Shown here: positions 763-2,092 of the stretch, piece after piece | How positions within the stretch are numbered: position 1 is the first letter of the stretch | How the letters are laid out: each line of letters begins with the position of its first letter | Source of the DNA: a virus | Taxonomy: Duplodnaviria; Heunggongvirae; Uroviricota; Caudoviricetes | IMG/VR virus record: IMGVR_UViG_2526164649_000017 | DNA: 10,224 nt | Strand: one strand, 5' to 3' | Program-made: the position numbers and the translations under genes | The notes under the pieces: model-generated | The model's input: only the letters and a program-made list of their open reading frames with translations | Databases searched by the model: none | What the model was told of the DNA's origin: nothing

Positions 763-1041
763 ATGGCACGCAACGCAAAATATTACAATCATGATAATTC
801 GACCGTTCTTGCCCACACGCACGAGCGGTATTCTCATGCATTTAAGTCAGACTGGTACCAGCATCCCTCATGCACTGAAGAACAGGCCGAATGGCTCATT
901 CAGTGTTACCGCAGGCGCGGATGCGAGGTTAAAAAAGCCCTTAGCCTCGACTACCGTCACTGGATAATCTCCGTCAGGCTCCCTTACTCCGAACAGCCAC
1001 CGCGTCCGTCCCGCACATTCCAGCAACGGATCTGGAGGTAA
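763..1041 (+). CDS. Hypothetical protein (92 aa)
   Basis: ORF with GGAGA SD (752-756) 6 nt before ATG 763. Its stop TAA (1039-1041) lies 1 nt before the GTG start of the next gene, and GGAGG (1034-1038) inside its 3' end serves as that gene's SD. No family recognised. Confidence 0.45.
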   Translation: MARNAKYYNHDNSTVLAHTHERYSHAFKSDWYQHPSCTEEQAEWLIQCYRRRGCEVKKALSLDYRHWIISVRLPYSEQPPRPSRTFQQRIWR

Positions 1042-1042
1042 C

Positions 1043-2092
1043 GTGCGGGTATTACTTCGACCTGTTCTGGTTCCGGAACTCGGGCTGGTGGTCCTTAAGC
1101 CCGGTCGTGAATCCATGCCGGTATTCCACAATACCCGGTTACTGGTGGAGCCGGAACCGAAAAGCATGCGTAATCTGCCGTCCGGGGTCGTTCCTGCCGC
1201 TCGCCAGCCGCTGGTGGAAGACAAAACATTGCTGCCGTTTTTCAGTAACGCACGGGTGATTCGTGCTGCTGGTGGTGCTGGTGCATTGTCTGACTGGCTG
1301 TTGCGCCATATTAAATCCTGCCAGTGGCCACACGGCGATTATCATCACAGCGAAACCGTCATTCACCGTTATGGTACCGGCGCAATGGTGTTGTGCTGGC
1401 ACTGCGACAACCAGCTGCGTGACCAGACATCCGAATCACTCGAGCAACTTGCTCATCAAAACCTGTCAGCATGGATGATTGACGTCATCGGTCACGCAAT
1501 AAGCGGTACGCAGGAGCGTGAATTATCTCTAGCTGAATTATCCTGGTGGGCGGTCCGCAATCAGGTGGCGGACGCGCTACCGGAAGCGGTATTACGTCGT
1601 TCGCTGGGGTTGCGTGCGGAAAAAATCCGCTCAATGTACCGTGAAAGCGACATCGTACCGGGAGAGCAGACCGCCACCAGCATACTGAAACAGCGCACAA
1701 AAAATCTTGCGCCGCTGCCTCACGCCCACCAGCAACAGAACCCACCACAGGAAAAGACGGTGGTCAGCATTGCCGTTGATCCTGAGTCTCCGGAATCTTT
1801 CATGAAACGACCTAAACGTCGCCGCTGGGTTAACGAGAAATACAAACGCTGGGTGAAGACACAGCCGTGTGCGTGTTGTGGTAAGCCAGCCGACGATCCC
1901 CATCACCTGATTGGTCATGGTCAGGGCGGAATGGGGACAAAATCTCACGATATTTTCACGCTACCGCTGTGTCGGGAGCATCACAACGAGCTTCATGCGG
2001 ATCCTCTGGCGTTCGAAGAAAAGCATGGTTCTCAGGTTGATTTAATTTTTCGTTTTCTTGATCACGCCTTTGCAACTGGCGTGCTTGGGTAA
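1043..2092 (+). CDS. ydfU: DUF968-type prophage protein with C-terminal HNH (His-Me finger) nuclease-like motif
   Basis: 349-aa ORF, GTG start assumed from the ORF track (true start may be an internal Met). C-terminal CACCGKPADDPHHLIGHGQGG...SHD...LCREHHNELH fits an HNH signature. Synteny rem-ydfU as in Qin, from memory. Confidence 0.7.
   Translation: MRVLLRPVLVPELGLVVLKPGRESMPVFHNTRLLVEPEPKSMRNLPSGVVPAARQPLVEDKTLLPFFSNARVIRAAGGAGALSDWLLRHIKSCQWPHGDYHHSETVIHRYGTGAMVLCWHCDNQLRDQTSESLEQLAHQNLSAWMIDVIGHAISGTQERELSLAELSWWAVRNQVADALPEAVLRRSLGLRAEKIRSMYRESDIVPGEQTATSILKQRTKNLAPLPHAHQQQNPPQEKTVVSIAVDPESPESFMKRPKRRRWVNEKYKRWVKTQPCACCGKPADDPHHLIGHGQGGMGTKSHDIFTLPLCREHHNELHADPLAFEEKHGSQVDLIFRFLDHAFATGVLG

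Follow-up and report, generated by a model that had tools for sequence, protein, structure and literature searches.

Positions 763–1041 of the 10,224-nucleotide stretch of Caudoviricetes DNA analysed here (the window) are, on sequence evidence, a stand-alone small protein gene of the PHROG 1212 family that a lambdoid prophage of the Qin type carries in its nin (early-right) operon. The predicted gene is a real and widely conserved small prophage gene, and its stop abuts the start of a putative nuclease gene of the DUF968 (YdfU-like) family (Table 1). The explanation that we favour as a whole—a genuine gene, a long form derived from a shorter one, translational coupling to the nuclease gene, control by the leader and a role in the recombination module of the phage—is one that we regard as reasonably probable.

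Table 1 Features of the small gene, its leader and the downstream cistron (positions in the window)
Feature	Position	Strand	Details
Promoter-like site	682–709	+	TTTTCA, 16-nt spacer, TACAAT (704–709); 9/12 matches in consensus scan
Leader hairpin 1	715–732	+	GCGGGG (715–720) with UCCCGC (727–732), loop CUGAAC; MFE fold
Leader hairpin 2 (predicted)	743–770	+	CGUGCCA (743–749) with UGGCACG (764–770); 7-bp stem, RNAalifold, 47 unique leaders
Small ORF	763–1041	+	ATG 763–765, stop TAA 1039–1041; 92 codons, frame open throughout
N-terminal extension, codons 1–26	763–840	+	Found only in the long form (Qin type); disorder predicted, constraint weak
Conserved core, codons 27–92 and stop	841–1041	+	phrog_1212 E = 3.5e-35; dN/dS 0.11
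Junction hairpin (predicted)	1010–1049	+	1010–1016 with 1043–1049 (covers GUG); 1018–1023 with 1032–1037 (covers GGAG of the SD)
SD GGAGG of the DUF968 gene	1034–1038	+	Formed by the two codons (TGG AGG) before the stop of the small ORF
DUF968 (YdfU-like) gene, downstream cistron	1043–2092	+	Putative His-Me finger nuclease; PF06147 E = 2.6e-76; GTG start, 349 codons

A GGAG Shine–Dalgarno (SD) sequence can be read directly at 752–755, with a spacing of 7 nt to the ATG. A single nucleotide, C1042, separates the TAA from the GTG at 1043–1045, and the GGAGG of the downstream gene is embedded in the final codons of the small ORF; on all of these points the initial annotation was accurate. In the window, 72 ORFs reach 40 aa or more, so the length of the small ORF alone is within chance. 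It rises above chance because it is conserved in its ATG, its junction, the dN/dS of its core and its stop-free sense frame. The ATG is retained in 232 of 232 long-form loci. Across 100 unique sequences the core (aa 27–92) has a dN/dS of 0.11 and no stops, and among the frames compared only the sense frame combines a low dN/dS with an absence of stops; the +1 frame inside the ORF has a dN/dS of 3.6 and 187 stops. The initial annotation had named missing conservation, or synonymous-site variation inconsistent with coding, as evidence against its proposal; the ORF is instead conserved, with a low core dN/dS. Its suggestion of a separate small protein gene is upheld by the low core dN/dS, the conserved ATG and the PHROG 1212 match. 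We also weighed an antisense ORF (868–1224, 118 aa; 137 aa in K-12) as the source of the conservation and rejected it, as every antisense frame has many stops.

Residues 27–92 of the protein cover positions 1–66 of the 66-position phrog_1212 profile (120.9 bits), and the distant members L352 and L353 match the same profile. Homologues of 66–69 aa occur in phages of Salmonella, Klebsiella, Cronobacter and Yersinia, with the core sharing 36–48% identity with gp51 of mEp237, STM2620.1n of Gifsy-1, ORF47 of PY54 and gp17 of phiES15. W31, T38, A42, L45, Y49, G53, D63, L73, P74, R81 and W91 are invariant in a six-sequence alignment and at least 90% conserved in 58 sequences. Clustered at 90% identity the family forms 477 groups, and at 50% it forms 106; it is spread over the phages of Enterobacterales.

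The gene is ordinary and no discovery, being already annotated automatically as a hypothetical protein. That is its PGAP label in E. coli and Shigella genomes, and 4,529 of 5,426 complete E. coli genomes (83%) carry it. Only in the curated MG1655 record (NC_000913.3) is the ORF unannotated: that record omits the gene while an intact ORF lies in the ydfU–rem gap (1644306–1644584, minus strand). As a general description the term fails, given the PGAP label and PHROG 1212. Scans of the 92-aa protein gave no match in Pfam and a chance-level match only in NCBIfam (E = 0.084; 12 bits against a 350-bit cutoff), and a sequence profile search of the PDB likewise returned only chance-level matches (E = 0.028 and 0.31). 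None of 12 papers that mention ydfU refers to the small ORF. A search for ribosome-profiling literature naming the Qin prophage turned up only the small-protein preprint of Weaver et al., which reportedly targets proteins of 50 aa or fewer.

The Qin-type gene shares with other PHROG 1212 members the early-right operon position between replication/recombination genes and Q. It differs from them in having 24–26 extra N-terminal residues, a Phe where they have the initiator Met, and its own leader behind rem or the hok terminator, whereas they follow NinB, YbcN or RdgC. Residues 1–21 of the extension have pLDDT values of less than 50, and its dN/dS (0.60) is no better than that of other frames and does not single out a reading frame. 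Across the 100 unique sequences the extension is free of stops; its indels are all 6 or 9 nt long, the ATG is always retained, and no other in-frame ATG, GTG or TTG occurs 5′ of the conserved core. Comparison of the two forms shows, at the level of sequence, that the long form arose from the short form through a lost upstream link, a change of Met to Phe27 and an added tail. The ancestral form was a protein of 66–69 aa encoded directly after a recombination gene (NinB/Orf, YbcN or RdgC-like), with a nuclease gene next in most sampled loci. The Qin lineage then lost the link to the upstream recombination gene, with rem or the hok terminator there instead; Phe27 now stands at the ancestral Met and the predicted start has moved 26 codons upstream to ATG 763, adding a disordered, fast-evolving tail.

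The core is predicted with confidence by AF2 (block-mean pLDDT of 91–94 for residues 31–70 and of 74–81 beyond) as strand–helix–strand–strand followed by a basic C-terminal helix, which is strongly conserved (PRPSRTFQQRIWR). The sole significant fold match in BFVD is Orf QD1 of N15 (E = 2.3e-4), probably itself a member of PHROG 1212. R3H, SirA/YhhP-like and KhpB/Jag domains share a two-layer α/β architecture with strand–helix–strand–strand–helix order; these matches are not significant and provide a lead only. The R-x-x-x-H motif is absent from the small protein.

At the boundary with the nuclease gene, the sequence ATCTGGAGG-TAA-C-GTG is nearly invariant among long-form loci, and the DUF968 start lies at +1 in 224 of 227 of them. 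Synonymous variation occurs directly 5′ of the fixed TGGAGGTAA, dS is low (0.18) in codons 79–88, just 5′ of the junction, and nucleotide diversity across the junction is low (0.013–0.018). In other lineages of the family the ORF ends in TGG GGG or TGG AGG, and then come the stop, 2 nt and the next ATG; that of PY54, with a gap of 48 nt to the next gene, ends in TGG AAA. An SD in the terminal codons is found in every lineage with an abutting next gene and is lost at the 48-nt gap. The predicted junction hairpin has an MFE of −17.8 kcal/mol with a z-score of only −1.8; its fold is kept in 31 unique variants (−10 to −21 kcal/mol) with no double-sided changes and so no covariation. Termination–reinitiation with an occluded downstream ribosome-binding site (RBS) is textbook biology for gene pairs of the trp operon and for the coat and replicase genes of MS2. 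The junction described here resembles those systems in its stop 1 nt before the start, its SD inside the upstream ORF and its predicted hairpin over SD and start. Ribosomes that end at UAA 1039–1041 would open the predicted hairpin over GGAGG and GUG and restart 1 nt downstream, which would make synthesis of the DUF968 nuclease dependent on translation of the small ORF. In a departure from those systems, other phages join DUF968 just as tightly to upstream genes unrelated to this one, and tight junctions run throughout the nin-region operon. Of the coupled pair proposed initially, the conserved anatomy of translational coupling stands; a dedicated pairing is not supported, given the operon-wide tight junctions and the other neighbours.

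The same junction anatomy and predicted occluding hairpin could also mean that only the act of translation matters, with the small ORF opening the RBS of DUF968 in the manner of a leader or upstream ORF and its peptide having no function of its own. The nearly neutral evolution of the 26 N-terminal codons fits this reading. The core is under purifying selection, which contradicts a functionless peptide, as do the residues that the core shares with homologues in other genera and its confidently predicted fold, and we consider this alternative very improbable.

The initial annotation also raised the possibility that the ORF is the N-terminal part of a longer DUF968 protein, shifted into another frame. 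Such a detached N terminus would either have been split off by a frameshift mutation or be rejoined by a programmed +1 frameshift at AGG-UAA-C with GGAGG as the stimulator, as in prfB. The DUF968 frame is indeed open for some codons 5′ of the GTG (13 codons in K-12), an SD-like element lies beside an in-frame stop followed by C, as in prfB, and no stop interrupts the +1 frame across the junction. One database protein, P0193, runs from the small ORF into the DUF968 frame; it is the sole read-through form and is a partial frameshift variant. Fusions, which the initial annotation had proposed to look for in related prophages, were absent: an exhaustive profile search of 1.84 billion representative proteins returned 106 clusters of 29–248 aa, none fused to DUF968 (the longest match, of 248 aa, is fused to something else), and no DUF968 fusion was present among the 127 homologues of a first search or the best 120 of the 477 homologues of a second. 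The family also stands alone upstream of unrelated genes, and the +1 frame within the small ORF lacks a coding signal. In addition, AGG-UAA gives the P-site tRNA no re-pairing, so that, unlike prfB, there is no slippery P-site codon, and the spacing from SD to site differs from that of prfB. DUF968 homologues of SfIV, mEp390 and a Klebsiella phage (39–49% identity) begin at the same conserved N terminus without the PHROG 1212 gene upstream. Because residues 2–18 (R2, L5, P7, P11, G14 and V16) are conserved in these distant homologues, GTG 1043 is, on this alignment, the correct DUF968 start; position 1 of the phrog_96 profile ('HNH endonuclease'; E = 3.9e-174) aligns to residue 1 of the product. 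The reading as a frameshifted or split protein is thus largely refuted, and we judge it extremely improbable.

The leader of the Qin-type gene is itself conserved. The spacer between rem and the ORF is nearly invariant (diversity of 0–0.003). The −10-like hexamer lies about 52 nt 5′ of the ATG, and TACAAT, TATAAT or CAATAT is found at the same distance in leaders behind three different upstream contexts. The stem of hairpin 1 varies by leader class yet stays paired (GCAGGG/CCCUGU, GCCAG/CUGGC and GUCAG/CUGAC), and nearly every variant has the conserved CUGAAC at the start of its loop. Hairpin 2 would bury the U and G of the AUG together with codons 2–3, with the SD within the enclosed 14-nt segment. 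Its stem cells are paired in 328 of 329 cases; slid controls are 15–40% paired, compared with 92.6%. Two pairs are changed on both sides (UA to CG and CG to UA) with U–G intermediates, and these compensatory changes could all stem from one clade. By pairing the AUG, this conserved hairpin would in turn restrict translation of the small ORF.

The gene order in the window is hokD, rem, the small ORF, DUF968, rusA and Q, and the same early-right niche is occupied in mEp237, Gifsy-1, phiES15, L352 and L358. Elsewhere, the genes upstream of the family are NinB, YbcN or RdgC-like. Among 343 scored loci, the downstream gene is DUF968 in 227, NinG in 96 and YbcO in 13; in single loci it is a Rap-like phrog_5034 gene, an RNase_T exonuclease or RusA, and in at least three lineages it is a gene of unknown function. 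The loci are highly redundant, and a count by lineage gives His-Me nucleases for only about 4 of 10 context types. The association with nuclease and recombination genes is confounded by the conserved synteny of the nin region and by this redundancy.

The initial annotation had suggested a small partner protein, and these counts bear directly on a partner dedicated to the His-Me finger nuclease encoded downstream (a regulator, inhibitor, chaperone or specificity subunit), the proportion of which would be fixed by coupling. A His-Me nuclease gene lies directly downstream, overlapping or within 1–2 nt, in 336 of 343 loci, with the Rap-like gene in one further locus, and the DUF968 (His-Me finger group 7), NinG and YbcO nuclease families belong to one superfamily (PMC5714182). 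However, DUF968 occurs without the family gene in SfIV, mEp390 and the Klebsiella phage, where KilA-N or RusA genes precede it at an equally tight junction; the family is found in 55 phage records compared with 186 for DUF968; NinG of lambda is preceded by ninF; and the family also precedes the RNase_T exonuclease, RusA and three unknown proteins. A role as a dedicated partner is not supported, because the tight junctions are operon-wide, the downstream genes vary and DUF968 occurs without the family gene; we regard it as distinctly unlikely.

The nin region is known to harbour small, non-essential genes with a variety of functions, as the lambda gene order illustrates. NinD, NinE, NinF and NinH of lambda share the niche and size class of the small gene and form an overlapping or abutting chain of cistrons ahead of NinG and Q. 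None of the four is detectably homologous to it (hhalign probability of 0.1–0.2% each), and the Pfam families NinE, NinF and NinH gave no match at E values of up to 0.1. The small gene could thus be a nin-region accessory gene for host takeover, exclusion or anti-defence that has no link to recombination, with neighbours that reflect only inherited gene order. The Qin-type gene follows hokD and rem rather than a recombination gene, and the searches detected no nucleic-acid-binding or nuclease-related motif in the small protein, both of which fit an accessory role. Against it, PY54/N15-type telomere phages, the layout of which is unlike that of lambda, again place the gene after an RdgC-like recombination-associated gene and in one case before a DEDD exonuclease, and, for anti-defence, a PADLOC scan of the 92-aa protein and one short-form member gave no match. 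We consider the accessory-gene explanation unlikely.

Our best guess remains a role in the phage recombination module. The small protein may act in recombination or in the processing of branched DNA, where it would bind nucleic acid or a recombination protein rather than serve as a subunit dedicated to DUF968. A more specific proposal is that PHROG 1212 is an unrecognized adaptor or regulator of this module, acting between an upstream Orf/RdgC-type mediator and a downstream junction nuclease (Rap, YbcO or DUF968), and that in the Qin-type lineage the synthesis of both adaptor and coupled nuclease is gated by the AUG-occluding leader hairpin; in this full form the proposal is speculative and decidedly improbable. 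In Rho-defective K-12 cells ydfU is upregulated and rem is not, which implies Rho-dependent termination between the two genes (PMC9160355). This suggests that little translation of the region takes place while the cryptic prophage is uninduced, and counts against the explanation that we favour.

Current understanding is not overturned by any of these results. The MG1655 reference annotation lacks an intact Qin-prophage gene that is under purifying selection, and adding it would correct the record in a small but genuine way, because 83% of complete E. coli genomes carry the gene and PGAP already calls it. PHROG 1212 is one of many uncharacterized nin-region gene families, and because it consistently sits between genes for recombination mediators and for junction nucleases, it is a candidate that could be tested at low cost in Rap/Orf recombination assays. 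The conserved leader and the two predicted RBS-occluding hairpins suggest that expression of the DUF968 nuclease may be set by translation of the small ORF, which would matter if the nuclease is toxic when Rho silencing of the prophage fails.

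In the window, a segment of a Qin-type lambdoid prophage, a 92-codon open reading frame (ORF) begins at ATG 763 and ends at TAA 1039–1041. GGAG lies upstream of the ATG at 752–755, the final two sense codons (TGG AGG) form GGAGG at 1034–1038, and C1042 separates the stop from GTG 1043, which opens a 349-codon ORF for a full-length DUF968/YdfU protein (PF06147, E = 2.6e-76; phrog_96, E = 3.9e-174). The Shine–Dalgarno (SD) sequence, the frame, the stop 1 nt ahead of GTG and the embedded GGAGG all read as the initial annotation described them.

ORF length alone does not prove a gene, because 72 ORFs of at least 40 amino acids occur in the window. 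We therefore rely on related loci, 352 in all, gathered from phage genomes and viral contigs; 232 of these carry the long form (89–92 amino acids), in 100 unique DNA versions. Long-form dN/dS (Nei–Gojobori) is 0.21 for the whole ORF and 0.11 for codons 27–92. Of all six frames, the sense frame is the only one with both a low ratio and no stop codon; the remaining frames have ratios of 1.7–3.6 or stops by the hundred, which disposes of a long antisense ORF as the source of conservation. mEp237, Gifsy-1, PY54 and phiES15 encode homologues with 36–48% protein identity, as do phages of Klebsiella, Hafnia, Edwardsiella and Erwinia. The ORF is thus clearly conserved with coding-type substitutions, and these comparative sequence data settle it as a gene; they go clearly against the refuting outcome named in the initial annotation, absence of conservation with substitutions of a non-coding kind. 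In two viral contigs (L013 and L017; 99% identical to the window ORF), a premature stop leaves 66 codons, with DUF968 79 nt away.

The small ORF was found in 4529 of 5426 complete Escherichia coli genomes, with as many as 8 copies in one genome. PGAP labels it ‘hypothetical protein’, including in the K-12 derivatives DH5alpha and C600, and an identical Shigella protein is already in databases as a hypothetical or ‘prophage’ protein. The ORF is absent from the annotation of the curated MG1655 record (NC_000913.3), yet its 92 codons are intact there, within the 346 bp that separate ydfU from rem. The earlier description ‘unannotated’ therefore holds for that reference alone.

Residues 27–92 cover the entire 66-residue profile of PHROG 1212 (E = 3.5e-35), a family of unknown function. 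Scans of the small protein against Pfam and PADLOC gave no match, and NCBIfam gave one at chance level only (E = 0.084). The family is small and restricted to Enterobacterales phages: at 90% identity it forms 477 clusters, and at 50% an exhaustive scan of 1.84 billion representatives found only 106. Most members have 66–69 amino acids (short form); the Qin-type proteins of Escherichia and Shigella have 89–92, because the ancestral initiator methionine is now Phe27 and the start must be an upstream ATG. No in-frame start codon other than ATG 763 precedes the conserved core in the window. The 26-residue extension evolves near-neutrally (dN/dS 0.60, indistinguishable from other frames); across 100 sequences it has no stops, indels of 6 or 9 nt only and an invariant ATG. 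AlphaFold2 predicts disorder at residues 1–21, followed by a core of strand 28–33, helix 39–52, strands 55–60 and 67–75 and helix 84–91, with block-mean pLDDT of 91–94 at residues 31–70 and 74–81 further on.

The ORF had also been proposed as a frameshifted N terminus of a longer DUF968 protein. No DUF968 fusion was present among the listed matches of two word-indexed searches or in the 106 clusters that the exhaustive search produced. Longer matches in family searches were mis-called starts or chimeras, and one database protein, P0193, is a partial frameshift variant in which the small ORF runs into the DUF968 frame. The DUF968 proteins of SfIV, mEp390 and a Klebsiella phage, encoded downstream of KilA-N or RusA, begin at the position that corresponds to GTG 1043 and have in common the N-terminal motif R2, L5, P7, P11, G14, V16. 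No coding signature was found in the +1 frame within the small ORF and, unlike prfB, the junction presumably has no slippery codon. Sequence comparison does not support the fusion.

The junction, ATC-TGG-AGG-TAA-C-GTG, is nearly invariant among long-form loci; the adjoining Arg codon varies synonymously (CGC, CGG, CGT), ATG replaces GTG in four loci, and DUF968 starts at +1 in 224 of 227. Synonymous divergence is just 0.18 in codons 79–88, immediately upstream, and nucleotide diversity across the junction is 0.013–0.018, which suggests extra nucleotide-level constraint. A predicted hairpin (−17.8 kcal/mol) pairs 1010–1016 with the GUG region and 1018–1023 with the SD; it is retained in 31 junction variants, with a z-score of only −1.8 and no covariation. 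Conservation, position and predicted hairpin give the anatomy of termination–reinitiation, as expected of the coupled pair that had been proposed; we infer the remaining part, that DUF968 translation depends on that of the small ORF. Such tight coupling is not special to this pair. Short-form lineages end in TGG-GGG or TGG-AGG, a stop and 2 nt before the ATG of the next gene (in PY54 the ORF ends TGG-AAA and the following gene is 48 nt away), the family gene's own start likewise adjoins the stop and SD of the preceding gene, and elsewhere DUF968 is joined just as tightly to unrelated upstream genes.

The gene downstream, scored at 343 loci, is DUF968 (227), NinG (96), YbcO/DUF1364 (13), RusA (1–2) or, singly, others; single loci and separately examined lineages have Rap-like phrog_5034, an RNase_T exonuclease or the unknown phrog_1372 and phrog_25905. 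DUF968, DUF1364 and NinG each belong to the His-Me finger nucleases (PMC5714182). Upstream lie NinB/Orf, YbcN/DUF1367 (likewise an Orf-family mediator) or RdgC-like genes and, for the Qin-type ORF, rem or the hok terminator. Given strong redundancy in the sample and an inherited gene order across the nin region, we read this loosely: the gene travels with a recombination/nuclease module. DUF968 is present in 186 phage records and PHROG 1212 in only 55, so a specific, obligate partnership is unsupported. In one distant lineage (L358–L360, metagenome and genome contigs), the family gene overlaps NinB upstream and is followed by a 136-aa unknown protein (phrog_25905), with NinG three genes beyond; direct nuclease adjacency is thus not universal.

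The leader came to light when we checked whether the SD was good, as had been claimed. Spacer 689–763 is nearly invariant (diversity 0–0.003 versus 0.02–0.11 in flanking coding DNA; 63 unique rem-containing loci). Across 47 unique leaders behind three kinds of upstream sequence, a −10-like hexamer (TACAAT in the window) about 52 nt ahead of the ATG is kept, as are a hairpin with a CUGAAC loop, whose stems vary by compensatory changes, and a 7-bp hairpin (743–749/764–770) that pairs the U and G of AUG and codons 2–3. This last stem is an unaided RNAalifold prediction, with 328 of 329 cells paired and double-sided changes in two pairs, which may have a single clade origin. Short-form genes do not have the leader. 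In K-12, Rho-defective cells raise ydfU and not rem, and Rho-dependent termination has been placed between them (PMC9160355), which implies that a strong Rho-dependent terminator lies within the small ORF or close to it. Termination there fits poor translation of the region in a silent prophage.

Elsewhere in the window, a strong intrinsic-terminator-like hairpin and T-run directly follow hokD (296–322), and in rem-less prophages the small-ORF leader begins directly after this terminator. The rusA TAA at 2459–2461, GAA in MLI110 and 55989, removes the final 6 residues and breaks the ATGA by which rusA and Q overlap in relatives. Right of Q are tRNA genes and insertion sequences; two inverted IS3-family copies, which we take to be IS600-like, flank a transporter-like gene fragment (7208–7723, minus), and the first ORF of the right-hand copy is shortened.

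Features of the window and of the K-12 copy
Feature	Coordinates	Strand	Remark
hokD	72–227		
rem	445–696		
Small ORF	763–1041	plus	between rem and rusA
DUF968	1043–2092	plus	between small ORF and rusA
rusA	2105–2461		
Q	2476–3297		
tRNA-Met (CAT)	3441–3516		downstream of Q
tRNA-Arg (TCT)	3618–3694		downstream of Q
STnc100 sRNA family	4391–4580		full-length match, 132 bits; downstream of Q
111-codon ORF	4606–4941	minus	iraM annotated at same place in related strain
IS3-family copy	5900–7056	minus	272-aa transposase ORF
IS3-family copy	7855–8951	plus	identical 272-aa transposase ORF
Presumed IS2-like element	8978–10224		to window end
K-12 MG1655 copy, intact 92-codon ORF	L003 4307–4585 = NC_000913.3 1644306–1644584	minus	
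K-12 rem–ydfU region	equivalent to ~697–1042		PMC9160355

The order strand–helix–strand–strand–helix modelled for the small protein recurs among weak matches to R3H, SirA-like and KhpB domains; this likeness may serve as a lead only. With low confidence, we suggest that the small protein would act as an accessory to the phage recombination module by binding nucleic acid or protein, and that its translation would bring ribosomes to the nuclease cistron. The feature is real, rightly described and ordinary: an already catalogued hypothetical phage gene, one in a series of coupled cistrons in the nin region. Of most use are the annotation gap in MG1655, the dismissal of the proposed fusion and a conserved leader with a predicted AUG-occluding hairpin.
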